53,743 nt of DNA from an uncultured Myxococcales bacterium (GTDB lineage: Bacteria > Myxococcota > B64-G9). Each line of letters begins with the position of its first letter. The stretch's first letter is position 1. The DNA lies in assembly GCA_964431605.1 (NCBI GenBank), contig CAYSLH010000004.1, positions 1 to 53,743 on the forward strand, given 5' to 3'. The notes under the pieces are model-generated. The model was not told the origin of the DNA. It was given only the letters and a program-made list of their open reading frames with translations, and did no database searches. The position numbers and the translations under genes are program-made. Below, one piece after another: positions 2,981-30,722 of the stretch.

Positions 2981-4234
2981 CTAAGCACTTTCCGACTGCT
3001 GGTCAAAAAGCAAAAGCGGTTTTTCCTTGTGGTCGATCACTTCACCGTTTACGACGACTTCCCTAATAGTTCGCCTTGACGGAATCTCATACATGAGATC
3101 CAGCATTGCGTTTTCCAGGATCGAACGAAGCCCTCTTGCGCCGGTTTTTCGTTCCAGCGCCTGTCGGGCAACAGCACGCAGGGCGTCATCCGTAAATCTC
3201 AACACCACATCATCCATTTCGAACAATCTAAGGTACTGCTTGACCAAGGCATCCTTTGGTTCCACTAAAATACGCAGTAACATGTCCTCATCTAATTCGT
3301 GCAGAGTTGTCTTGACCGGCAAGCGACCAATAAACTCGGGGATCAGGCCGAACTTCATCAAATCTTCACTCTCAACCTGGGCCAAGATCTCTCCCAAAGA
3401 TCTCTCTACCTTTTTCAGTTCGCCACCTGTAAACCCGATGGCATTCTCGCCAAGCCTGCGTTCGATAATCTGGCTCAACCCGTCGAATGCCCCACCACAA
3501 ATGAACAGGATGTTTGTAGTATCCACAGGTAAAAAATCCTGCTGTGGATGTTTCCTCCCACCCTTTGGCGGAACATTTGCGACTGTTCCTTCGATTATCT
3601 TCAAAAGTGCCTGCTGCACGCCTTCGCCTGACACGTCCCGCGTAATGGACGGGTTCTCACTCTTGCGGGAGATCTTGTCGATCTCGTCGATGTAAACGAT
3701 TCCATGGGACGCTCTTTCCACATCCTGGTCAGCGGCATGCAACAAATTGACTATGATGTTCTCCACGTCCTCGCCCACATAACCAGCCTCGGTAAAAGTA
3801 GTGGCATCCACTATGGTAAAAGGCACGTTGAGAAATCTAGCCAGGGTTCTTGCCAACAAGGTCTTTCCGGTACCGGTGGGTCCGATAAGTAAAATGTTGG
3901 ATTTCTGTAGTTCCACATCATCCACCACACCTGCAGTGGCAACCCTCTGGTAATGATTATGTACAGCAACGCTGAGAACTTTTTTTGCCTGCTGCTGTCC
4001 GATTACAAAATTATCCAGCTCTGCCTTGATCTCAGCAGGCTTGGGAACGACCATGGAATTTTGACCGGAATCTCGCTCAAGCTCCTCTTCTATTATATCG
4101 TTGCAAAGGGCGATACACTCGTCACAAATATAGACAGTCGGTCCAGCAATGAGCTTGCGGACCTCTCTCTGGCCCTTGCCACAAAATGAACAAGAAAGAA
4201 AATCAGGAGGCCCGTTGTTGCTTTCGTCGGACAC
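2981..4234 (-). CDS. clpX: ATP-dependent Clp protease ATP-binding subunit ClpX
   Basis: 417 aa. N-terminal zinc-binding C4 motif (CSFCGK...CDEC), Walker A GPTGTGKT, and a pore/IGF-type region. Confidence 0.97.
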
Positions 4235-4237
4235 CTT

Positions 4238-4846
4238 CTATTTCTCCTTATCCCCGCCACTCGTAGCTTTTCTGGTTACGACCTCGTCTACGAGCCCGTA
4301 TTCAACGGCGGCCTGGGCATCCATAAAGAAATCCCGGTCCGTATCCCTGGAGATGGTCTTCAAGTCCTTTCCTGTGTGCGAAGAGAGAATCTCGTTCAGA
4401 ATCTCTTTGATTCGCAAGATTTCTTTCGTCTGGATTTCTATATCAGAAGCTTGGCCCGAGACCCCGCCAAGAGGTTGATGGATCATGACGCGGGCATGGG
4501 GCAGGCAATAACGTTTTTCTTTTTTCCCGGCGGCCAGCAACACCGCACCCATACTGGCGGCTTGTCCCATGCAAATAGTCGACACGTCGCATCTTACATA
4601 TTGCATTGTGTCATATATGGCCAGGCCGGCCGACACTGAACCACCGGGAGAATTGATATACAGGTTGATATCCTTATCAGGATCCTCGCTTTCCAAAAAT
4701 AGCATCTGCGCAATGGCGAGATTAGCCACATCGTCATCGATGGCTGTACCCAGAAAAATAATCCTGTCCTTGAGCAGACGGGAATATATATCATATGCTC
4801 TTTCGCCTCGATGGGATTGCTCTACTACAATCGGAACCAAAGTCAT
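4238..4846 (-). CDS. clpP: ATP-dependent Clp protease proteolytic subunit ClpP
   Basis: 202 aa. The catalytic Ser context GQAASMGA and the His context MIHQP are present. Its ATG overlaps the tig stop (ATGA). Confidence 0.97.
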
Positions 4847-6189
4847 TGTGAATCTCCCGATGGTTTATTGTCACCTTCGCCTTTGGTGACTTTCTCCTGT
4901 TCACCTTTTCCAATGTTAGACAGATTCATCAAATGGTCAACAACCTTGTCCCTGCGCAAGTTGGCTTTTAATTCAGCGGTTCGGGCGGAATCCGCGTAAA
5001 GGGCCTTGAGTCGGGCGATATTCTCTCCACTCTTGGCAGCCACATCGTTCAGGTGGGTCTCTACGTCGTCATCGCTTACTTCAATCCCCTCTTTATCTGC
5101 GATTGCACCGAGTAAAATAGCCGAAGCCACTTCTTTCTCTGCTCGTGGCGTCAGGTCTTCGAGCATCTTGTCCGTATTTTCTGAGATCTGGTCCGGGGTA
5201 AGCCCCTGGAACTGAAGCATGCTCTGAAGCTCGTGGAGCATAGAAGCCTTCTGCCGTTCGACCAAGGCGGGCGGCACAGGAACTGGATTGGCCTCGAGTA
5301 ACTTGTCTATGAGCTCGGTCTTCGCATCCCTTTCCGCTTTGGACTCCAGTCCCTCTCGAAGCCTTCGCTCCACCATGGCACGAACGTCGTCTGCCGTCTC
5401 GACTCCCTCTTCACCCAGGTCCTTTGCGAACTCGTCATCCAACTCCGGCAGTTCCCTCTGTTTCAACGCTTTGAGCACGACTAAAAAATGCATGGTCTTT
5501 CCAGCCAGATCCTCCGGGAACCCCTCCTTGGGAAACTCCAAGTCGAACTCCTTCTCGTCTCCCACCTTCATGCCGATGATTTCTTCTTCGAATCCAGGCA
5601 CGGTGGAACCGGAACCCAACTCCACCTGGTGGTCGCTCCTCTTTCCTCCTTCCTGCAACTGACCATCCCTGCTCGCTTCATAGTCAATGATTACCGTGTC
5701 CCCTTTTTGGGCCACATCACGACCTTCGACAGGCACCAGAACAGATCGGGCAAGACGCAACCTCTCGATCTCCTCCGAGAGCATCTCCTGGGTTACCTTT
5801 GGCTCCTCGATCTTGATATCAAACCCGGAGATGGTTTTGATCTCGACCTCCGGCTGTACCTCGACCTTGGCGACGAACTTATATGGCTCACCCTCCTTCA
5901 ACTCCCCTTGCTCCAACTCGGGTACTGCAACAGGCTGGATATTGTTCTGTATTAGCACGGCCTCATAGGCTTCCTGGATAAGTCTACCGAGAACGTCGGC
6001 GTTTACCCTCTCGGAATATCTCTGGCGAAGCATGGTCCTTGGGACCTTGCCCTTTCTGAAACCTTTTATGGTGACCTTTTTGGCTAAATCTCTATACTCG
6101 CGATCGAGTTCTTCCGCCAACATGGGCCAGGGCAACTCTACTGAAATCGTTCGGTGGATGGGATCAGGCGTTTCAATGGTAGTCTTCAT
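4843..6189 (-). CDS. tig: trigger factor (peptidyl-prolyl isomerase chaperone)
   Basis: Ribosome-binding N-domain signature (GFRKGKVP), a central FKBP domain and a C-terminal arm domain. I chose the ATG at 6189, which is preceded by GAGGA; the ORF stays open to a GTG at 6201. Confidence 0.93.
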
Positions 6190-21108: not shown

Positions 21109-22473
21109 CTATTCGCAGTCATCACCTATACCATTGTTGTTATCATCTGTCTGAGCACTGTTGCGGACCCCAGGACAGTTGTCGTCACACTGACGACGTT
21201 TGCCGCCTCGACAGGGGTTATCACCGGCGACCCCGCTACCATCGCCATCTTCTCTAACCCCGTCTCCATCTGCATCAGAGTCGCACTCATCACCTTTTCC
21301 GTCATGGTCCATGTCATGCTGACTGGAATTCCAGATATCAGGGCAGTTGTCACTTCCGTGGCAATCATCTGCCTCAATGCCGGGATCACACACTCCATCT
21401 CCGTCATCGTCATTATCGCAAGGATTTCCGATTCCATCATTGTCAAGATCGCCATTATCATTGGACGACAGGTCAGGACAAAGGTCACAGGCATCACCAT
21501 ACCTGTCTCCATCAGAGTTGACCTGCTCGCCCAACATGAGTTCAGCCGGTGTTATGAGGCCATCCTGGTTTACATCGCAATGAAGCTGAAAGATGGGATT
21601 GGAACACTCCATGCCATTGGGAACCTGTGGACAATTGTCACATTCATCACCAAGCCCATCCCAATCGCTGTCGAGTTGCCAAAGCTGAGAATAACCATCA
21701 CTATCTTCCATCTCCACCAGGTTGGGGAAAAACTTGCAAAATCCGGTTTTGGGTCCATCGGCTTTATTTATGGTGCATTGCCATTTTCCTGAACAGGCAG
21801 GCCGAGGAAGGGTTCCGTCCGAGATGGCATTGTTGCAATCATTGGTCGTGGCACAAGGTGTTTTGTGAGCAAGAGACCGACAATGGACGCAACCTCGCGA
21901 ATCCAAATCATATCCATCTGGCACACCGAGATAGCAGGTTTTAGGTGTTGGATTGTCACCACTGAAACACTCGGTGCAAGTGTCGGCCTGATCAGTGATA
22001 TCCGAACATCGATCGAACCTGGTTGCTTTTTCTTTTTTACTCTGGCCGGCAGGGCAGCATTCGTCCTTTGCCATACAAACGAACTGCCTGGAAAACCTCG
22101 CGTTGGATACATCCGGGCAGTTGTCGTCACAATCGCCTATGACCTTTTCGAAAACCGTCTGCTCACCTGTCTCCTGATCGGTCACGACCCTGACTCCGCA
22201 GCGACGATCGAATGAACTACCGCTGAGATCGCCGTCATTAGGTACCGAGTCCTCATCGTCATCCTCGTGGCATACCCCCCACAACTCCTCATACCGTTCA
22301 CCTTCGATGACCTGCGTTCGTCTGAGACACAGATCCCCCAGTTCGCAGTCCGAGTCAGCCACGCAATCAGAACCAGCCCCTCCCCTGCAACCTGTGGCAA
22401 AAATCCCCAACAAACCCACAAGGGCGAGCGCAAACACGGGCGGTAAATTTTGGATGCGCATATATGCGTTCAC
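21109..22473 (-). CDS. Cys-rich lipoprotein with thrombospondin type-3 (calcium-binding) repeats
   Basis: GTG at 22473 is preceded by AAGGAGG (5-nt spacer). Lipobox FATGC. The C-terminal half has reiterated DxDxDGxxDxCDxCP / DNDGIGNPCDNDDDGDGVCD motifs. Confidence 0.75.
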   Translation of the reverse strand: MNAYMRIQNLPPVFALALVGLLGIFATGCRGGAGSDCVADSDCELGDLCLRRTQVIEGERYEELWGVCHEDDDEDSVPNDGDLSGSSFDRRCGVRVVTDQETGEQTVFEKVIGDCDDNCPDVSNARFSRQFVCMAKDECCPAGQSKKEKATRFDRCSDITDQADTCTECFSGDNPTPKTCYLGVPDGYDLDSRGCVHCRSLAHKTPCATTNDCNNAISDGTLPRPACSGKWQCTINKADGPKTGFCKFFPNLVEMEDSDGYSQLWQLDSDWDGLGDECDNCPQVPNGMECSNPIFQLHCDVNQDGLITPAELMLGEQVNSDGDRYGDACDLCPDLSSNDNGDLDNDGIGNPCDNDDDGDGVCDPGIEADDCHGSDNCPDIWNSSQHDMDHDGKGDECDSDADGDGVREDGDGSGVAGDNPCRGGKRRQCDDNCPGVRNSAQTDDNNNGIGDDCE

Positions 22474-22605
22474 AAAAACCTCCTTGAACCAACCAACACA
22501 AACAGCGAAAAGAACGAGGTTCAGGTGGGTCAGCATATAAACCAAACCTGTGGTACTGTCAAGGCCATTCTCCTTCCAACCCCAAAAGAACACGCCAGTT
22601 TTTGC

Positions 22606-22634
22606 TTGACTTGACAGCCACCCTGACATATTTA
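22606..22634 (+). promoter_or_regulatory. sigma-70-like promoter for the 22698 gene
   Basis: TTGACT (22606-22611), a 17-nt spacer, then TATTTA (22629-22634), in the divergent intergenic region. Confidence 0.3.
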
Positions 22635-22697
22635 CGGAGCCGCGGTAGGAGCCTGCCTGAACCGTGTGATGGCAATGGCCTGAGACCGGGAGGAAAG

Positions 22698-23744
22698 ATG
22701 ATCGAGCGCACCACAACAGTTAGAATTTCGACGATCCTGGCTCTGCTGGGGTGCCTTTTCGCAGCGCCTGCAACTCAGGCCAATATAGTGAACGAAGAAA
22801 AAGAGATATATGTTGTTCGACCCGTAATCACTGAACCAGCATGGACTCAAACCGGATTCTATTTCAACAGCATGGGATTTGACCTACCCAATGCGGTATC
22901 ACGTCCCAGTGCCCAGGTGGGTTTTGTCTTCACCCCAGGCATTACATGGTCCATCATGGATTTCATTGAACTCAACATTGCCTTCCCGCTCGTCGTGAAT
23001 CCGGATGCAACTGGAGATAGGGAGCTAAACGCCGCAGACAACGCCAGGAGACTGGATCCATCTTACCAAGATCCCCCATACTGGGATTCAACACCTGATT
23101 TTGACCTTCCGGGTCTTACCCTCGGAATGAAGGCCGCCCTGGTGGGCAATAAAAAAACAGACCGTTTTTTCCTTGCGGTCGGAGTTACCAGCAGCATCCC
23201 GGTAGTCAGCTCCGACAAGTGGTCCACCAACCTGATGGGCTCTAAGACCATGCCGGGACATTCCAATTCACTGCGCTTGGCGCCATACGTTTCTTTGGCA
23301 TATTCCCTGGGACGGTTTTCACCCCAACTTCAGTTAGGAGCTTTCTTCCGTTTCAACGAAGAGTTCTATGACATTGACAACCCACCATCTGTGGGCGAGC
23401 CCCTGGCCAAGTCAGACTATGCCGATTTCTTTTTCAACCTGGCATTACCATTCGCATTTCTCTATGAACACACTGCACCGGTATTGGAGATCAACGGAGT
23501 ATTTGGTACTGAAAGCATCCAGCTTTTCATCACTCCTGCTGTAACCTTTCTACCCAGCCACAGCCCGGCACTGATCTCCTTCGCATGCCAGATTCCAGTT
23601 CTGGATAGTGAATTCAGGGGTATAGAAGGGGTCCGGTTCATGGTAAACTTCAGCTATAGACTGGATGCACTGAGTATACCGGCCCTTGCTTCTGATGAAG
23701 ATGATGACAATGAATCTGCAGAGCAGCCTCCATCGGGATGGTAG
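22698..23744 (+). CDS. putative outer-membrane beta-barrel protein
   Basis: ATG at 22698 is preceded by GGGAGGAAAG. Signal peptide ISTILALLGCLFAAPATQA. Alternating beta-strand pattern through most of the protein and an acidic C-terminal tail. The track's upstream extension (22602) lacks an RBS. Confidence 0.5.
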   Translation: MIERTTTVRISTILALLGCLFAAPATQANIVNEEKEIYVVRPVITEPAWTQTGFYFNSMGFDLPNAVSRPSAQVGFVFTPGITWSIMDFIELNIAFPLVVNPDATGDRELNAADNARRLDPSYQDPPYWDSTPDFDLPGLTLGMKAALVGNKKTDRFFLAVGVTSSIPVVSSDKWSTNLMGSKTMPGHSNSLRLAPYVSLAYSLGRFSPQLQLGAFFRFNEEFYDIDNPPSVGEPLAKSDYADFFFNLALPFAFLYEHTAPVLEINGVFGTESIQLFITPAVTFLPSHSPALISFACQIPVLDSEFRGIEGVRFMVNFSYRLDALSIPALASDEDDDNESAEQPPSGW

Positions 23745-23816: not shown

Positions 23817-24941
23817 TTGGCAGGTAAAACTTTTATTTCAGATATACGAAAGCGCCTGGAAAAAGAATCCCGTTCTTTTCCAATGAAGGGATCCTTTCTG
23901 GTTGACGACAAGCAGGTTCCACTGAACAAGAATGGCAACCCATATCTATCGCTGGTTCTCAAAGACCGGGACGGGACGATCTCCGCGAAGATGTGGGACA
24001 ACGTAACAGACACCCAGAACAAACATCCGTTTTCAGCGGGTGATTTCGTAATGGTCGAATGCGAAGCGCAGCTCTATCGAAATCAACCTCAGCTCAAAAT
24101 AAAAAAGCTAAAAAAAATTGCTCCTCCCGATCCGGATGAACTGGCGGACTTTCTCGGCAGTGTGAGCATAGACATTCAGAAGATGATGGACGACCTCCAA
24201 CGGCTCATAGAAAGCCTTCATACGGCTCCACTTCGAGATCTACTGATGACCAGATTGGCGGATGAATCATTCCGACAGGAATTCTCCCGCTGTCCCGCGG
24301 CTAAGACAAACCACCATGCTCACATTGGAGGCCTTTTACAGCACACCCTGTCTGTGATGAGATTGGCCGACGCCATATGTGGAAATTATCCGGAGTTGGA
24401 CAGGGATCTACTGGTTGCCGGGGCATTTTTGCACGATGTGGGCAAAATGCGGGAAATACGTACTGACAGTTCTTTTTCCTATTCCGACGAAGGCAATCTC
24501 ATCGGACACTTGGTAATAGGTGCCCAGATGTTCGAGCAGTGGTGTGGCGGCCATGAGTTGGATGCCACGTACAAGCTCAAGCTCGTACACATGATCCTTT
24601 CTCATCATGGAAAGCGGGAATTTGGTTCACCTGTGGTCCCAAAATTCCCAGAAGCCTTGGCTCTGCACTTTTTGGACAACTTAGACTCCAAGCTCCAGAG
24701 CATGTTCGAGGTCGCCAGGCAGCAATCGGGTCAAAAATGGTCTTCTTTCCAGCCTCAATTCGAAGGATATTTGTTTCTGGACTCTGAGGCGACAAAGGTT
24801 CACAATCCCGATAGGAATAAAAACAACGAACAAACTCTTAGGCACAGGCCACTGGCAGGCCTCGCAGACGAATTAGCAAAAGGAGACACGGTGGATCTCT
24901 TCCAGCCAGACAACAACCCGGCAAAAGGAGAACCTCATTGA
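23817..24941 (+). CDS. OB-fold + HD-domain 3'-5' exoribonuclease, YhaM/CBF-like
   Basis: N-terminal OB-fold (NGNPYLSLVLKDRDGTISAKMWDNV...GDFVMVECEAQLY). HD domain (HHAHIGGLLQHTLSVMRLA...FLHDVGK...ILSHHG). TTG start with a GGGAAAGG region upstream. Confidence 0.75.
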   Translation: MAGKTFISDIRKRLEKESRSFPMKGSFLVDDKQVPLNKNGNPYLSLVLKDRDGTISAKMWDNVTDTQNKHPFSAGDFVMVECEAQLYRNQPQLKIKKLKKIAPPDPDELADFLGSVSIDIQKMMDDLQRLIESLHTAPLRDLLMTRLADESFRQEFSRCPAAKTNHHAHIGGLLQHTLSVMRLADAICGNYPELDRDLLVAGAFLHDVGKMREIRTDSSFSYSDEGNLIGHLVIGAQMFEQWCGGHELDATYKLKLVHMILSHHGKREFGSPVVPKFPEALALHFLDNLDSKLQSMFEVARQQSGQKWSSFQPQFEGYLFLDSEATKVHNPDRNKNNEQTLRHRPLAGLADELAKGDTVDLFQPDNNPAKGEPH

Positions 24942-25513
24942 AGTTTGGAGAGAAGCTCATCAAGGCCGGACTCATCGACAAGGCTCAGCTAAACGCCGGG
25001 CTGAGTCACCAGAAAGAAACCGGGCAAAAAATCGGTGAAGCGCTTCTAGAGCTCGGTTACATAAGCGAAGAGAACCTTCTTAAGTTTCTTGCAAAACAAT
25101 TCAACACTCAGTTCGTGTCCACGAAAAAGCTCTCTCGTGTTTCTATCTCCGACAAAATCCTGGCATTGGTTCCTCAGCAGGTGGCAGAGGTCAACAACCT
25201 ATTTCCGATTCTGTACAAAGAAGCCAATTCCACTCTCGGAATCGTCACGGCAGAACCTCAAAACACTGCCATCGTTGAAGACCTTCGAATCATTAGCGGT
25301 TTGGAACATGTACAAGTTTTCGTCGCCTCACGGGAAGGAATCAAGGCAGCCATAAAAAAACACTACAAAAGCGATATACATGCTTTTGCAGCTCTGGACA
25401 AAGCTCGTGAGGAAAAGATGGAACAGGTAATGGAGCTTTATTCAGACAGGCTCCTGAAGGATGAAGAGATAAGGAAGAGCCCAAGGCCGTCAAAAAAGGA
25501 CCTGCCGTCATGA
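24938..25513 (+). CDS. stand-alone MshEN / T2SSE_N-domain protein (predicted c-di-GMP receptor)
   Basis: TTG start with AAGGAG 7 nt upstream, overlapping the upstream stop (TTGA). Residues 2-25 (KFGEKLIKAGLIDKAQLNAGLSHQ) and 31-54 (KIGEALLELGYISEENLLKFLAKQ) both fit the 24-residue MshEN motif and are separated by a 5-residue spacer. Confidence 0.8.
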   Translation: MKFGEKLIKAGLIDKAQLNAGLSHQKETGQKIGEALLELGYISEENLLKFLAKQFNTQFVSTKKLSRVSISDKILALVPQQVAEVNNLFPILYKEANSTLGIVTAEPQNTAIVEDLRIISGLEHVQVFVASREGIKAAIKKHYKSDIHAFAALDKAREEKMEQVMELYSDRLLKDEEIRKSPRPSKKDLPS

Positions 25514-27165
25514 GGGCGGAGCCTGAAATCGGGTTCGAATCCGAAGGAACATCTTCCTGGACCAGGCAGATCGAAGCTGTCAGAACAAACTCTCTCGTCT
25601 CCGATAACGACTTCATAGAGACCCTGAACATTCTCGTAGGACTTCTGGAGATGCAGCGCGAGAACATGCAGGGGCACTCTGCCAACGTGGTCAAGTGGAC
25701 CAAGGCCGTATCTGAGCGAATGGGTCTCAAGGAAAGAGAGATCAACCACAACATCATAGCCGCCTACCTTCACGACCTGGGCAAAAGAGCCTCCGTACAC
25801 CTCACGCTCCTTAGCATTTCGAAGAGTGATGATCACAGGAAACGAGCAAAGAGGTACAACCTGACGCCCGCAAGACTATTTGACAGTGTTCACCTCCCAC
25901 CTCAGGTCAACAGGATCATTGGACACCTGTACGAATGTTATGACGGAACAGGGATTCCAGAGCAGCTCATGGCAGAAGGAATACCAACAGGTTCCAGGAT
26001 CATTGCGGCCGTGGATGCATTCGAAGACCTGACCAACAACCCAACCAATCCCCTGGGCAAGGTCCTGGATAGCAACAGCGCCATGGACGAGATCAGGAAA
26101 TATTCCGACAGCCTCTTCGACCCTCAAGTCGTAGAGTTACTCGCTGAGGTACTGACAGGGGACGAAGCAAGAGCAAAACTTTCATCCACGAGTCCCCTCA
26201 TACTTCTGGCTGATCCGGACAATTCCGCCACATCCGTCCTGGAACTCAAGCTGGTCAAGAAAGGTTTCAAGGTCAGGGTAACGAGAGACAGCGACTCGAC
26301 CTTGGAGAGCCTTCAGGCTGAAAAAATTGCTGCCATGCTTTTAGAGATGCGACTGGAACCACAGGATGGGTTCCAAGTAATCAAACGGATGAAAGAGGCT
26401 GGAATGGATTTACCCGTGTTCATGGTATCTTCGGATCCTCCGCCTGAAGCCATAACCAGAGCTTTTAGCTCTGGAATAGTCGACTTCATCACAAAGCCGT
26501 TTGTCGCAGAAGTCATCATAGCCAAGCTCCAGAAAGAGCTCAGCACCTTTGGTTCTGCTAAACGAACGGACCAGTTGCGACCCGGCACGGATGAAACGGA
26601 TGAACAGGAGATTGGAAGCGTCGTGATCGAATTGGATGACGATCAGGCAGGAGGACTCGACGATGCCATGGCTGCGGCAGAACAAGCCATTTCCGTGATA
26701 GATGATGATGACATACCCCTGTTGAAGGAAGAAGAAAAAACGCCCACACCTCTTCTGACGCCTGTACCATCGTCCACCGACGAGCAAGCAACAACAGATA
26801 CACCAGACCCTACCATGCCTGGTCCCCCCACAGGGACCATGGCTGGAGTGGTAAATACCGACAGCCTGGTAATATCAGGCAGCCTGGATGGTAAAAAAGC
26901 CATTGCCCTGATAAAAGCCCTTTCCGGAAAACGAAAGACAGGTTTACTTTCCCTTCGCCTTGGCGAAAGCAAGGGGATGATTTATTTTGAAAAGGGTCAC
27001 GTCTTCCAGGCCTTGGTAGACGAAATTCAGTCAGAGGAGGCATTTTTGGAGTTGGCGACCTGGACCGACTGCGTCTACAAGTTCGATCCGGAAAAAGCTC
27101 CCAAAAAACGCGATATCCAGACATCCACCGGTAAACTCATTCGAATTGCAGAACTGCAAGACTGA
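25510..27165 (+). CDS. multidomain signalling protein: degenerate HD-GYP + pseudo-receiver (REC) + PATAN/DUF4388
   Basis: HD-GYP-type region has H56...HDLGK(88-92)...GHLYECYDGTGIP(138-150), i.e. HHE->HLYE and GYP->GIP. REC fold spans aa about 229-345, with E279 at the phospho-acceptor position (AAMLLEMRLEPQDG), S307 and K329. The C-terminal part GSLDGKKAIALIKALSGKRKTGLLSL...GMIYFEKGHVFQA...EEAFLELATW is PATAN-like. ATGA overlap with the upstream gene. Confidence 0.75.
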   Translation: MRAEPEIGFESEGTSSWTRQIEAVRTNSLVSDNDFIETLNILVGLLEMQRENMQGHSANVVKWTKAVSERMGLKEREINHNIIAAYLHDLGKRASVHLTLLSISKSDDHRKRAKRYNLTPARLFDSVHLPPQVNRIIGHLYECYDGTGIPEQLMAEGIPTGSRIIAAVDAFEDLTNNPTNPLGKVLDSNSAMDEIRKYSDSLFDPQVVELLAEVLTGDEARAKLSSTSPLILLADPDNSATSVLELKLVKKGFKVRVTRDSDSTLESLQAEKIAAMLLEMRLEPQDGFQVIKRMKEAGMDLPVFMVSSDPPPEAITRAFSSGIVDFITKPFVAEVIIAKLQKELSTFGSAKRTDQLRPGTDETDEQEIGSVVIELDDDQAGGLDDAMAAAEQAISVIDDDDIPLLKEEEKTPTPLLTPVPSSTDEQATTDTPDPTMPGPPTGTMAGVVNTDSLVISGSLDGKKAIALIKALSGKRKTGLLSLRLGESKGMIYFEKGHVFQALVDEIQSEEAFLELATWTDCVYKFDPEKAPKKRDIQTSTGKLIRIAELQD

Positions 27166-27227: not shown

Positions 27228-27629
27228 ATGGCTTTCGAAATAGAAGTTACTCATGGTGGAGGAAAGAAGATAGATGCAAAAATAGGTAATTTTGTCATCC
27301 ACACCGATCAGGCAAAGGAGTCCGGGGGCGATGCATCAGCGCCGGAGCCCTACATGCTTTTCCTTGCATCCCTGGCAACCTGTGCCGGCATCTACGTCAT
27401 CGGCTTTTGCCAGGCGAGATCAATCCCTACGGAAAACATCCGTATCACGCAGGATCACGAGTTTGATACGAAGACAGGAAAAATGTCCAAGATCAAACTC
27501 CAGGTTCACGTACCAGACGATTTTCCCGAAAAGTACCTCAAAACCGTCCAACGGGCTGCAGCACTGTGCGCGGTAAAAAAGACCATCGAGGATCCCCCCA
27601 TCATGCAAGTCGAGACGGTCGTCGACTAG
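27228..27629 (+). CDS. OsmC/Ohr-family protein
   Basis: About 133 aa. ATG at 27228 is preceded by GGGAGG. OsmC-like segment SAPEPYMLFLASLATCAGIYV with conserved Cys, and a second Cys in AALCAV. Confidence 0.7.
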   Translation: MAFEIEVTHGGGKKIDAKIGNFVIHTDQAKESGGDASAPEPYMLFLASLATCAGIYVIGFCQARSIPTENIRITQDHEFDTKTGKMSKIKLQVHVPDDFPEKYLKTVQRAAALCAVKKTIEDPPIMQVETVVD

Positions 27630-29146
27630 TCAGGGTCCCAACAGCACCTGAAACCTAAATCCGTATTCTCCATCGTTGGACTATTGCACCACCACCCGTT
27701 CATGGGCCAGCCGCAGTGATACATGAAATCTATGGTCTCTTCCTGGTTTGGATCGTTCATGTCACATTCCTCACCCTCATAGGAGCAGTACCATGATCCT
27801 CCCTGAATTCCTTTATAGGAGCTGTTCCACTTGCAAACATCCGAGACCCATTCCCAGAGATTTCCGCTCATGTCGTACTCTCCTCCGACCGTCACACAAT
27901 CGGTCATGCTTCCCGTAGGAACCACGCCTCCGTTACCCGTAGCCCAGGTATTGCAAATATCCGGGATGAAAACCTCACCGTACGGATAATCCAGGTACAA
28001 TGGACCACCACAAGCCTGGGCATATTCTTCCTTTGTGCAAAGACGCTTTCCCTGCGCGGCACAAGCTACACTAGCCTGGTACCATGTAATATTACTCGAA
28101 GGTATGACACCTGGCAGAGAACAAGCGTAGTATGTTTTACCACCAGTTGCTGGATTGTCTGGAAAATCCGGTGGGTAGTCGTCCCAATAAGACTGTCCAA
28201 AAAAAGGCCCTGTACAGTCAGCACTGGCAGAGACTACATTTTCATATGCATCGACCCAGACATTGAAAAAGGGATGCTTGACCATGCATCCGCCAGGCTC
28301 ATCCACCAGTCCGTTGCAGTTGTTATCCAATCCGTCGGAACTCTCCGGCCCAACCTCGCACCGATCAATCGGTTGTACTCCTTCGTCCGTTTGTCCATCG
28401 CAATCGTTATCCAACAAATCGCACCTGGTCTCGTCACCTTCCTGGTAAGAACTTCCATAATCACATTCTGTCCAACCCTGTCCCCTGACACACTGCCTCT
28501 GTGTGCCGGCACATACTCCTTGCTGAAGAGGACAATCCTGGATATCGAGTTCCTCGTCTATCTGACCGTCACAGTCGTCATCGACGCCGTTGCAGTCCTC
28601 CTCCCTGGGCTCCAGGGCATCACAGGCCCACTTGCCATCCGTACACCTCTGATGTCCCTCACACGCACCAATCTGGTTTTGCCTGGTACATGCATCTCCC
28701 ACCAGGTCTTCGTCTGTCTGACCGTCACAGTCGTCATCTACACCGTTGCAGTCCTCCTCCTTGGGCTCCGGAGCATCACAGGCCCACTTGCCATCCGTAC
28801 ACCTCTGATGTCCCTCACACGCACCAATCTGGTTTTGCCTGGTACATGCATCTCCCACCAGCTCCTCGTCCGTGTCCCCGTCACAGTCGTTATCGACCCC
28901 ATCGCATTGTTCCACTCCCCCGGCCGTAGGGGTACACTCCCTGACACACTTTCCCCTCGTGGAACAAACATAACCATCTCTACACTGGGAGTCGAAAGTA
29001 CAATCGAAAATACATTCAGATGTGGCCACCAAGCAGTATCTTCCAGATGGACAATCCTCATCACCACTACAGCCTTTGTCAGGGTTAGAACACGATGAGA
29101 CCAACAGGAACAAAGAAACAAACGCACCGAGTAAAAATCTCACCAT
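27626..29146 (-). CDS. lipoprotein with MopE-like Cys-rich repeats and a C-terminal FGE-sulfatase (SUMF1-type) domain
   Basis: Lipobox LLVSSC. Repeated CDGVDNDCDGxTDE...C motifs. The C-terminal domain has GNLWEWVSD and GGSW... segments typical of formylglycine-generating-enzyme family proteins. Confidence 0.75.
   Translation of the reverse strand: MVRFLLGAFVSLFLLVSSCSNPDKGCSGDEDCPSGRYCLVATSECIFDCTFDSQCRDGYVCSTRGKCVRECTPTAGGVEQCDGVDNDCDGDTDEELVGDACTRQNQIGACEGHQRCTDGKWACDAPEPKEEDCNGVDDDCDGQTDEDLVGDACTRQNQIGACEGHQRCTDGKWACDALEPREEDCNGVDDDCDGQIDEELDIQDCPLQQGVCAGTQRQCVRGQGWTECDYGSSYQEGDETRCDLLDNDCDGQTDEGVQPIDRCEVGPESSDGLDNNCNGLVDEPGGCMVKHPFFNVWVDAYENVVSASADCTGPFFGQSYWDDYPPDFPDNPATGGKTYYACSLPGVIPSSNITWYQASVACAAQGKRLCTKEEYAQACGGPLYLDYPYGEVFIPDICNTWATGNGGVVPTGSMTDCVTVGGEYDMSGNLWEWVSDVCKWNSSYKGIQGGSWYCSYEGEECDMNDPNQEETIDFMYHCGWPMNGWWCNSPTMENTDLGFRCCWDPD
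28562..28873. repeat. 156-bp (52-codon) tandem duplication inside the Cys-rich lipoprotein gene
   Basis: Unit 1 starts at 28562 and unit 2 at 28718. The 89-nt cores are identical (28617-28705 = 28773-28861), and there are only 5 mismatches in the preceding 55 nt. A third diverged partial unit follows. Confidence 0.9.
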
Positions 29147-29197: not shown

Positions 29198-30652
29198 TCA
29201 ACCACGGATCCTGAACTTTACACCTAACTCCTGCGCGATTTTTGCAGCCTTTCTGTCATCTACCCCTGTATCTGCGACAACGGTTGCAGTGACATCATCA
29301 TACAATTGCGAACATCTTCTAACGAAGTCCACAACCGCTGCAAATGCTTCCATTCCGTACCTGTTGGGACAAATGCCGTCATGGGTTTTAGCATCGTGGG
29401 CATTGAGGCTGATACTGAATGCGTCAACAGAATCTCTCAACTCGAAAGCCACATCCCTTCCATGCACCAAGTTGGCCAATCCGTCCGTGTTCACCCTCAC
29501 CCTCAAGCCCCTGGACCTTATAGCCCTGCCCACCTGTGCAACCAACCGGGGTCTAAGGAGTGGTTCTCCCAAACCGCAAAAGACGACTTCTGACGTGGGT
29601 TCTTTTGCCAGTTGCTTTTCAGCAGCGGCTAAAACCTGTTCAGCATCAGGTTCCACTTGCAATCCCAGTTTGTATCCTCCCAACTCATAGCCTGAATTCT
29701 TTATGCAGAACCTGCATCCCATGGTGCACCTGTTGGTAATGTTCAGATACAAAGAATTCTTGAACCTATAGGCGATGGCGCCTGGTCGCGCTTTCTCGCG
29801 ATCAGCCATTCCAAACAAACGCCTTGCGTTTTCGCTGGTCACATGCCCTACCTCATTTTCATCCACACCCTTGACCCTCGCAAGTTCCCTTGCCACCTCT
29901 ATTACAAAAGACGGTTCGTTGCGTTTTCCGCGGTGTGGTACAGGGGCCAGGTATGGGCTGTCTGTCTCCACCACAAGCCGATCGATGGGAATGTCCCTTA
30001 CGATTTCGCGAAGAGACGAAGCGCTTGGAAAAGTAAGTATTCCCGTCAGGCCGAAGTAAAACCCCATGTCGAGGGCTGCTTCAGCCAAAACAGGGTCCCC
30101 GGAAAAACAATGTATCACGCCTCCCACACGCTGTGCGTGTTCTTCTCGCAGAATCCGAGCCACCTCTTGCTCGGCAGAACGAGCATGAATCACCAGGGGC
30201 AGATTCAGCTTTACAGCCATTCGAACCGATTGCCTGAACAACTCCCGCTGCAACTCCCTGGCAGAGTGATCATAATAAAAATCAAGCCCCACCTCCCCGA
30301 TGGCCACCACCTTTGGATGCAAGGCCAGTGAACTCAACCGCGAAAAAACCTGTCTCCGCCTCGTCTCCCACTTCTGTTTTACAGATGGGCTTATGCTTTT
30401 TACAGGATCACCGGATCTATCAACGCCCAAATTGGCATCATGTGGATGAACACCAACTGCAGCCCAAATCCTCTCTTGTGCAGCTGCAATGGATACTGCG
30501 CTGAAATTGCCTTCGACCCCGTCGCCTGAACCAATGGTTACGATATTTCGAACTCCAACGTTCCAGGCCCTTTCGAGTACCTCGTTGCGATCCTCGTCGA
30601 ATTTACCGAAATCGAGGTGCGCATGGCTATCCACCAATTCCATCCGGTTCAT
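29198..30652 (-). CDS. fusion protein: TatD-family metal-dependent DNase/hydrolase + radical SAM domain
   Basis: The N-terminal about 280 aa is TatD (VDSHAHLDF..., GEVGLDFYY, VIHARSA, HCFSG, ETDSPYLAP). The C-terminal about 200 aa carries LYLNITNRCTMGCRFC (CX3CX2C, nt about 29705-29728) and GLGEPLL. ATG at 30652; the track extends to 30703. Confidence 0.8.
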   Translation of the reverse strand: MNRMELVDSHAHLDFGKFDEDRNEVLERAWNVGVRNIVTIGSGDGVEGNFSAVSIAAAQERIWAAVGVHPHDANLGVDRSGDPVKSISPSVKQKWETRRRQVFSRLSSLALHPKVVAIGEVGLDFYYDHSARELQRELFRQSVRMAVKLNLPLVIHARSAEQEVARILREEHAQRVGGVIHCFSGDPVLAEAALDMGFYFGLTGILTFPSASSLREIVRDIPIDRLVVETDSPYLAPVPHRGKRNEPSFVIEVARELARVKGVDENEVGHVTSENARRLFGMADREKARPGAIAYRFKNSLYLNITNRCTMGCRFCIKNSGYELGGYKLGLQVEPDAEQVLAAAEKQLAKEPTSEVVFCGLGEPLLRPRLVAQVGRAIRSRGLRVRVNTDGLANLVHGRDVAFELRDSVDAFSISLNAHDAKTHDGICPNRYGMEAFAAVVDFVRRCSQLYDDVTATVVADTGVDDRKAAKIAQELGVKFRIRG

Positions 30653-30722
30653 TTCACCATCACCTTCGTGTGCTATACATGACGCCAAAAGCACGCGCCA
30701 CAAGGGCTCTCAATTGCTAGCC

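Follow-up and report, generated by a model that had tools for sequence, protein, structure and literature searches.

The window analysed here, 53,743 nt from contig CAYSLH010000004.1 of an uncultured Myxococcales bacterium, carries a run of three overlapping open reading frames (ORFs) that combine a YhaM-like nuclease with domains of cyclic di-GMP (c-di-GMP) signaling, and it raises the question of whether these ORFs are three cooperating genes. A preliminary description had read them as three stoichiometrically co-expressed genes. All three are indeed present on the forward strand of the window, to which every coordinate of the locus refers: gene 1 (positions 23817–24941, 374 amino acids), gene 2 (24938–25513, 191 amino acids), and gene 3 (25510–27165, 551 amino acids), chained by a TTGA overlap at 24938–24941 and an ATGA overlap at 25510–25513. 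However, comparison with relatives leads us to conclude, with good confidence, that the locus is a two-gene Myxococcota operon whose second gene, the receptor gene, is split here by one lost base.

When the 551-amino-acid protein was used as the query, about 80 homologues (83 counted) of 598–836 amino acids were recovered, with PF05157, HD_5, and PatA_N domains and, in many cases, Response_reg; for the fused homologues, a length range of 640–790 amino acids was also given. The closest homologue, P0002, is 738 amino acids long, roughly the sum of 191 and 551, and is 81–82% identical. The proteins of the relatives matched the window in frame +2 to position 25498 and then in frame +1 from position 25471. 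Homology in the gene 2 frame (…YSDRLLKDE) stops at 25465 and homology in the gene 3 frame (EEPKA) begins at 25474; translation of the junction in all frames showed that the conserved “EEPKA…KGPAV” linker is in the gene 3 frame already from 25474. At the nucleotide level, the window is 1 nt shorter than its closest relative (locus L001) between 25465 and 25474, and the alignment contains one 1-nt gap at about 25470. The deletion could be placed by homology within an 8-nt interval (25466–25473, GAGATAAG), and when one base was restored there, a protein of 742 amino acids with 82% identity to P0002 was obtained. The 191-amino-acid query alone returned only itself and missed P0002 in spite of 79% identity in this region; this search was therefore not used as evidence on stand-alone MshEN homologues.

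A scan of the GTDB representative genomes matched 137 genomes, all of them Myxococcota, from which 80 loci were kept. At every one of these 80 loci, the two halves of the MshEN-HD-GYP-REC-PATAN protein lie in a single frame, as one ORF corresponding to positions 24938–27165 of the window and to about 742 amino acids after the base is restored. The window as sequenced has two ORFs in place of this single polypeptide. By homology, genes 2 and 3 are evidently the N-terminal and C-terminal halves of one gene, with a 1-nt deletion relative to every relative. Because of this frameshift, the final 15 codons of gene 2 (25469–25513), an out-of-frame read-through to a TGA, and the ATGA overlap with gene 3 are by-products. 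Rather than an evolved three-gene design, the split reflects an assembly artefact, variation between strains, or a mutation that arose recently. The proposed coupling by overlapping codons therefore fails at the ATGA. It holds at the TTGA: a strong Shine-Dalgarno sequence read from the DNA (AAGGAG, 24925–24930) lies inside the 3′ end of gene 1, 7 nt before the TTG at which the receptor gene starts, and a 4-nt overlap between the two genes is also present in seven loci of the closest clade, which argues that the overlap of gene 1 with the fused gene is genuine.

The site of the missing base coincides with an assembly breakpoint (25468/25469). An exact look-up of the gene 1 protein returned three contigs from other assemblies, all of them matching the window at 100% identity: a 6,202-bp ENA MEGAHIT contig, a contig of 2,054 bp from an NCBI metagenome-assembled genome (MAG; equal to JGI Ga0256841_1047793), and a Logan contig of 1,987 bp. 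These contigs (L086, L087 (=L090), and L088) have no mismatches and different left ends, and all of them end on the right at 25468 (…GATGAAGAG before the break, ATAAGG… after it), within the 8-nt deletion interval. Exact look-up of the gene 2, OsmC-like, MetRS, and FGE-like genes found no contig on record to the right of 25468, and a JGI scan for contigs across the breakpoint returned only the same left-hand contig. No other frame switch was found in about 10 neighboring genes of the surrounding 16 kb, indicating that the problem is site-specific and that the assembly is not generally indel-rich. The stopping of contigs of identical DNA at 25468 makes a faulty assembly join or a strain-level variant the most likely source of the missing base. 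Behind the break may lie a branch in the assembly graph, a dead end in coverage, or an erroneous join, and the window contig might consist of two pieces joined at 25468. In sum, the split is probably an artefact or a variant that is not fixed.

Two other origins of the split have to be weighed. The one-base deletion might be a genuine fixed mutation, with the receptor gene being either a fresh pseudogene or a functional fission, in which the 551-amino-acid part is re-initiated at the ATG at 25510 and associates with the free MshEN fragment. The window contig does continue through the site, the surrounding 16 kb hold no second frameshift, and the break lies in the linker between the MshEN and HD-GYP domains, where a split is structurally tolerable; furthermore, a Shine-Dalgarno-like AAGGA stands 9 nt before the internal ATG, which also takes part in the ATGA stop/start overlap. 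Nevertheless, three contigs of identical DNA end at this point, suggesting an unresolved graph or a coverage problem, no other member of the family is split (80 loci), and beyond the closest relative the internal Met is not conserved, so we regard a genuine mutation as rather unlikely. A programmed −1 ribosomal frameshift of the dnaX type, producing a short MshEN-only protein together with the full-length fusion, seems hardly credible. Its candidate slip site, an A_AAA_AAG heptamer at 25492–25498, is correctly phased (zero-frame TCA AAA AAG) and lies inside a 46-nt stretch open in both frames (25465–25510), where a −1 shift at any point restores the full-length protein; a slip at the heptamer gives ...SKKGPAVMRAEP..., matching the conserved K(A)SGPAV linker. 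However, homology puts the frame change upstream of the heptamer, in the 25466–25473 interval, and all 80 relatives are in one frame, with L001 reading AGT AAA GGT and having no heptamer. No downstream stimulator is evident either (the downstream RNA has a minimum free energy of −26.3 kcal/mol and shuffled sequences average −24.4 kcal/mol, z = −0.64), and AAAAAAG is common in the window, with 27 occurrences. A homopolymer error or slippage at the A6 run itself (25492–25497) was also considered and rejected: EEPKA is in the gene 3 frame already upstream of it, and the gap is at about 25470. If the deletion is real, the in-phase heptamer could still let some ribosomes restore the full-length protein. 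As a separate observation, the 27 copies of AAAAAAG, counted on both strands, compare with 12.1 ± 3.7 expected from dinucleotide-preserving shuffles, none of 100 of which reached 27.

Under the two-gene reading, the receptor begins with tandem MshEN c-di-GMP-binding motifs of 24 residues each (24941–25099; KFGEKLIKAGLIDKAQLNAGLSHQ and KIGEALLELGYISEENLLKFLAKQ). Gene 2 matched NF053729, “c-di-GMP motif, MshE-related,” over residues 2–54 with 64.3 bits (cut-off 38), and it also matched PF05157 (MshEN) and, among solved structures, the N-terminal domains of PilF, PilB, and MshE. Both motifs fit the relaxed pattern [RKPN]hGxxhhxx[GAS]hhxxxxhxxxhxx[QNKRYWST] of Wang et al. 2016 (PMC5013675). Family members have K or R at motif position 1, and the Gly, like the first-motif Gln, is nearly invariant among them. 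The two motifs that had been noted in gene 2 are therefore borne out, and the MshEN part appears to be a c-di-GMP-binding domain, with binding predicted from the curated cut-off and from conservation. As in the N-terminal MshEN domains of MshE, PilB, and PilF (PDB 5htl, 5tsg, and 6f8l), the tandem motifs are followed by a GSPII-type subdomain; in contrast to those proteins, the MshEN domain of the window is not joined to a secretion or pilus ATPase, and both repeats have Lys for Arg at motif position 1, which the relaxed motif allows (PMC5013675).

The part of the receptor encoded by gene 3 matched HD_5 (PF13487, 74 bits, cut-off 27.2), Response_reg (PF00072, 60.4 bits), and DUF4388/PATAN, all above cut-off. 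The divergent HD-GYP domain (25633–26130) resembles V-cGAP3, PA4781, and PmGH among solved structures, and it has altered catalytic signatures, as had been described: HHE is replaced by (H)LYE and GYP by GIP. Of the eight metal ligands of PmGH (E185, H189, H221, D222, H250, H276, H277, and D305), three are replaced in the window (E185 by N, H250 by Y, and H277 by Y), and the equivalents of H189, H221, D222, H276, and D305 are retained. Among the 80 loci, the equivalents of H250 and H277 are essentially never His, that of H276 is His or Gln, and the Tyr of GYP occurs in no family member, the motif being G(L/V/I/F/T)P. Seven positions of the domain are invariant in all 80 loci (H247, H279, D280, K283, H288, E333, and D360), suggesting that the site is under selection rather than decaying. 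The N-terminal pseudo-HD-GYP domain of V-cGAP3 (PDB 5z7c) likewise has the HHE histidines replaced (LDE there, LYE in the window) and lacks the GYP Tyr, whereas the family of the window keeps a distinct invariant subset (H247, HD, K283, H288, E333, and D360).

The pseudo-receiver domain follows at 26200–26529. Its acceptor Asp is replaced by Glu (LLEMRL), with the signature Ser and Lys retained, and in agreement with the preliminary description it is predicted to be incapable of phosphorylation in the normal way. Among 74 members, 44 have Glu at the acceptor position, 13 have Gly, 10 have Asp, and 6 have Ser. The last domain is PATAN (DUF4388/PatA_N; 26875–27141), also as described, with a PF14332 match of 51.2 bits (cut-off 25, E-value 1.6e−13). 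PATAN and a receiver-type domain also occur together in the PatA-type PATAN-REC regulators of cyanobacteria (PixE and PixG), in which PATAN is an output domain binding the pilus motor proteins PilB1 and PilC (bioRxiv 10.1101/2021.06.11.447907). In the window protein, however, PATAN comes after REC instead of before it, the receiver is predicted not to be phosphorylatable, and the input is presumably c-di-GMP through MshEN rather than a chemosensory kinase.

Gene 1 was described as an OB-fold/HD protein related to YhaM, and the searches agree. A Pfam profile search found an OB fold (PF01336, 29.7 bits, cut-off 27) followed by an HD domain (PF01966, 53.9 bits). The best NCBIfam match was the YhaM exoribonuclease model NF010007 (E-value 2.6e−61) at 207 bits, which is below its equivalog cut-off of 460 bits. 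Among solved structures, YhaM itself (9h3f) was matched over residues 34–299 with an E-value of 5e−53, and Cbf1 was also matched. The HD metal-ligand set is complete (HH..HD..H..HH..D; signature HHHHDKHHHDD in alignment with YhaM 9h3f). Gene 1 shares the OB fold, the HD domain, and the full set of metal ligands with YhaM/Cbf1 of Bacillus and Staphylococcus (PDB 9h3f and 9o7t), and it differs from them in a C-terminal tail of about 70 amino acids, in its subequivalog score, and in sharing an operon with a c-di-GMP receptor gene. Its product is classed here as a YhaM homologue rather than a demonstrated functional equivalent, with a predicted 3′–5′ exonuclease activity.

The pairing of these two genes is conserved. 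Of 73 loci with enough flanking sequence, 72 have a gene 1-like ORF, found with an iterated gene 1 profile, immediately upstream of the receptor gene and on its strand, with a gap of −4 nt to about 170 nt. The sole exception, L017, lies on contig JAFGRB010000424 and holds a receptor copy that is 41–44% identical to that of the window; it comes from the same MAG (Zod_Metabat.807) as L014, and since this MAG holds two receptor-gene copies, L017 is probably the second one. Other neighbors are far less conserved: an upstream 380-aa gene recurs in 10 loci and an OsmC-like one in 1, and 49 of the 80 loci have a convergent TatD/radical-SAM gene. This indicates that the real unit is the gene pair. The idea of a module syntenic across Myxococcota is thus upheld for the pair and not for a trio.

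The state of the partner varies widely within this pairing. Of the 76 partner genes inspected, 30, that of the window among them, keep the whole HD ligand set, 41 have lost the HD core, and 5 carry mutations in it. The partners with an intact HD include those of Corallococcus, Pyxidicoccus, and Myxococcus sp. RHSTA-1-4. The deletions are in Archangium-type loci (within L026–L076), where the ORFs encode about 250–300 amino acids and Pfam finds only the OB fold. In the five mutated partners, found in Myxococcus xanthus (L068, QQ), Myxococcus sp. Y35 (L074), and loci L054, L047, and L077, HD is changed to QQ or RN. In every case, the HD-deleted or HD-mutated partner gene has kept its place directly upstream of the receptor. 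The receiver acceptor was also recorded as Gly at every locus without the HD core; the count over the 74 members gives Gly 13 times.

The fused protein appears to belong to the MXAN_2807 family of M. xanthus, so that the suggestion of a system without a described counterpart does not stand: MXAN_2807 is the single HD-GYP protein of M. xanthus that also has MshEN (PMC8844925), its HD-GYP domain was reported to be without catalytic residues by Skotnicka et al. 2015 (PMC4686200), and fusions of MshEN with REC and HD-GYP had already been listed by Wang et al. 2016 (PMC5013675). The protein therefore falls into a known, functionally uncharacterized family. Like the window protein, MXAN_2807 (Skotnicka et al. 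2015, Kuzmich et al. 2022) has MshEN, an HD-GYP domain without several catalytic residues, a degenerate REC, and PATAN, and the M. xanthus locus (L068), from the same phylum, has the same Pfam domains and the same upstream OB-fold partner gene. However, the two proteins are only about 31–35% identical; the receiver of the window, which retains Glu, Ser, and Lys, has degenerated less than that of Myxococcus (Ser at the acceptor, Lys lost), the partner nuclease of the window has an intact HD, which is QQ in M. xanthus, and only the window copy is split by a frameshift. No papers were found on the M. xanthus neighbors MXAN_2806 and MXAN_2808, and in the literature searched we found no description of the conserved pairing of a YhaM-like gene with the receptor gene.

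How might such a pair work? In the mechanism that we propose, the receptor gene encodes, as it does elsewhere, one cytoplasmic protein of about 740 amino acids, with an acidic, Pro-rich linker between the receiver and the C-terminal PATAN domain. c-di-GMP would bind the MshEN motifs, and the signal would be relayed through the noncanonical HD-GYP domain and the pseudo-receiver, acting as internal relay or ligand-binding modules, to PATAN, the presumed output domain, which would plausibly dock on pilus or polarity machinery. The OB-fold partner would provide nucleic acid binding, together with exonuclease activity where its HD is intact, as in the window, and the two proteins would act jointly as a nucleic acid-binding or -processing complex. 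The receptor would then be a c-di-GMP receptor or scaffold rather than a phosphodiesterase. The HD-GYP domain of the family keeps a fixed subset of residues without the second-metal ligands and the partner has repeatedly lost its HD domain, which suggests that the conserved function is binding or scaffolding, not c-di-GMP turnover.

The preliminary description had instead envisaged three co-expressed proteins, in which a stand-alone MshEN protein senses c-di-GMP, the HD-GYP protein linearizes it, and the YhaM-like nuclease clears the resulting pGpG. The ORFs, their overlaps, and the domains all exist as it stated, gene 1 keeps all of its HD ligands in the lineage of the window, and work cited in PMC6256023 showed in vitro degradation of 5-mer RNA by B. 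subtilis YhaM and partial rescue of an E. coli orn mutant by it; a downstream PilZ gene also accompanies one Syntrophaceae YhaM-like gene. Nonetheless, we consider this very unlikely. Genes 2 and 3 form one ORF in all 80 loci, and the HD-GYP domain needed to make pGpG lacks the GYP Tyr along with three of the eight PmGH ligands. Moreover, Orr et al. 2018 (PMC6256023) found that B. subtilis YhaM failed to complement a P. aeruginosa orn mutant and that a yhaM deletion left the output of a c-di-GMP reporter unchanged, and they judged YhaM “not likely to be important in pGpG turnover.” The HD core of the partner is absent or mutated in 46 of 76 genes, and the pairing persists. Because both catalytic centers are dispensable in large parts of the family, production of pGpG by HD-GYP and its clearance by YhaM is unlikely to be the conserved role, and a pGpG-clearing function of gene 1 in particular is poorly supported.

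Several points weigh against the two-gene, nonenzymatic interpretation that we prefer. The right-hand contigs were not recovered by look-up, so the deletion may yet be genuine. The mechanism as a whole is inferred from domain content and synteny, and the seven invariant HD-GYP positions are compatible with a retained catalytic activity of an altered type. The assignment to MXAN_2807 was made from similar length and from its being the sole M. xanthus HD-GYP protein with MshEN, not from comparison with the DK1622 sequence. Finally, growth, gliding, and pilus-dependent motility were unaffected by an in-frame deletion of MXAN2807 (PMC4686200), indicating that a pilus role is not evident under laboratory conditions, and the proteins found to matter for development do not include MXAN_2807 (PMC4877007, PMC8844925).

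Had the three-gene reading been kept, the record would have gained a three-component system and a stand-alone MshEN receptor that are both spurious; the split is best handled as a sequence-quality flag. In Myxococcota, the MXAN_2807-type receptor gene is almost always beside a YhaM-like gene and is often translationally coupled with it, which provides a lead on the functions of both and points to phenotypes such as natural transformation and nucleic acid handling at the pilus. Hanssmann et al. 2025 described YhaM as a hexameric 3′-exonuclease of single-stranded DNA that is needed after type IV pilus-dependent DNA uptake, and they postulated an unidentified regulatory partner for YhaM in natural transformation (PMC12107432). 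A more specific joint reading is that the MXAN_2807-type protein is the c-di-GMP-controlled partner of the YhaM-like protein and the myxobacterial counterpart of that postulated regulator, with PATAN tethering the complex to PilB/PilC, the OB/HD partner binding or trimming incoming or pilus-associated single-stranded nucleic acid, and the HD-less lineages keeping only the nucleic acid-binding role. Taken as a whole, this is a long shot.

YhaM-like genes are abundant outside Myxococcota (more than 5,000 matches), and no general association with c-di-GMP genes was seen there in two of the three loci of a small sample. The remaining one is on a Syntrophaceae contig (L091; also L092), where the YhaM-like gene (4001–4975) is followed, after a gap of 557 nt, by a gene for a 163-amino-acid PilZ-domain protein (5532–6023). 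This neighborhood may be a coincidence or a second association of YhaM with a c-di-GMP receptor.

Downstream of the receptor gene in the window, an OsmC-like gene begins after 60 nt on the same strand (27228–27629, its ATG at 27228 being preceded by the Shine-Dalgarno sequence GGGAGG); because it is common only to the closest relative (L001/L006), it lies outside the conserved module. Convergent to the operon is a gene for a TatD-DNase/radical-SAM fusion (29198–30703, reverse strand), the one found near the pair in 49 of the 80 Myxococcota loci, and HEAT-repeat, metG, PSP1, and holB genes come next. The retained TatD/radical-SAM, metG, and holB surroundings indicate that the pair sits in a conserved housekeeping neighborhood. 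An anti-phage defense system was considered for the locus and rejected, since PADLOC found only generic HD similarity to Cas3 and the neighbors are housekeeping genes (metG, holB, and coaD). Between the OsmC-like and TatD/radical-SAM genes, positions 27626–29146 of the reverse strand encode a predicted lipoprotein of 506 amino acids with an FGE-sulfatase domain, assigned by homology to neighbors in L001 and L003; its Cys-rich “CDGVDNDCDG” repeats contain a near-perfect internal tandem duplication of about 51 amino acids, in which …LVGDACTRQNQIGACEGHQRCTDGKWACDA… occurs twice. Upstream of the pair, also on the reverse strand (21109–22716), is a gene for a Cys- and Asp-rich protein of 535 amino acids with many DxDxDGxxDxxD-like repeats (thrombospondin type 3-like, calcium-binding), which is conserved only in the closest clade (nine loci).

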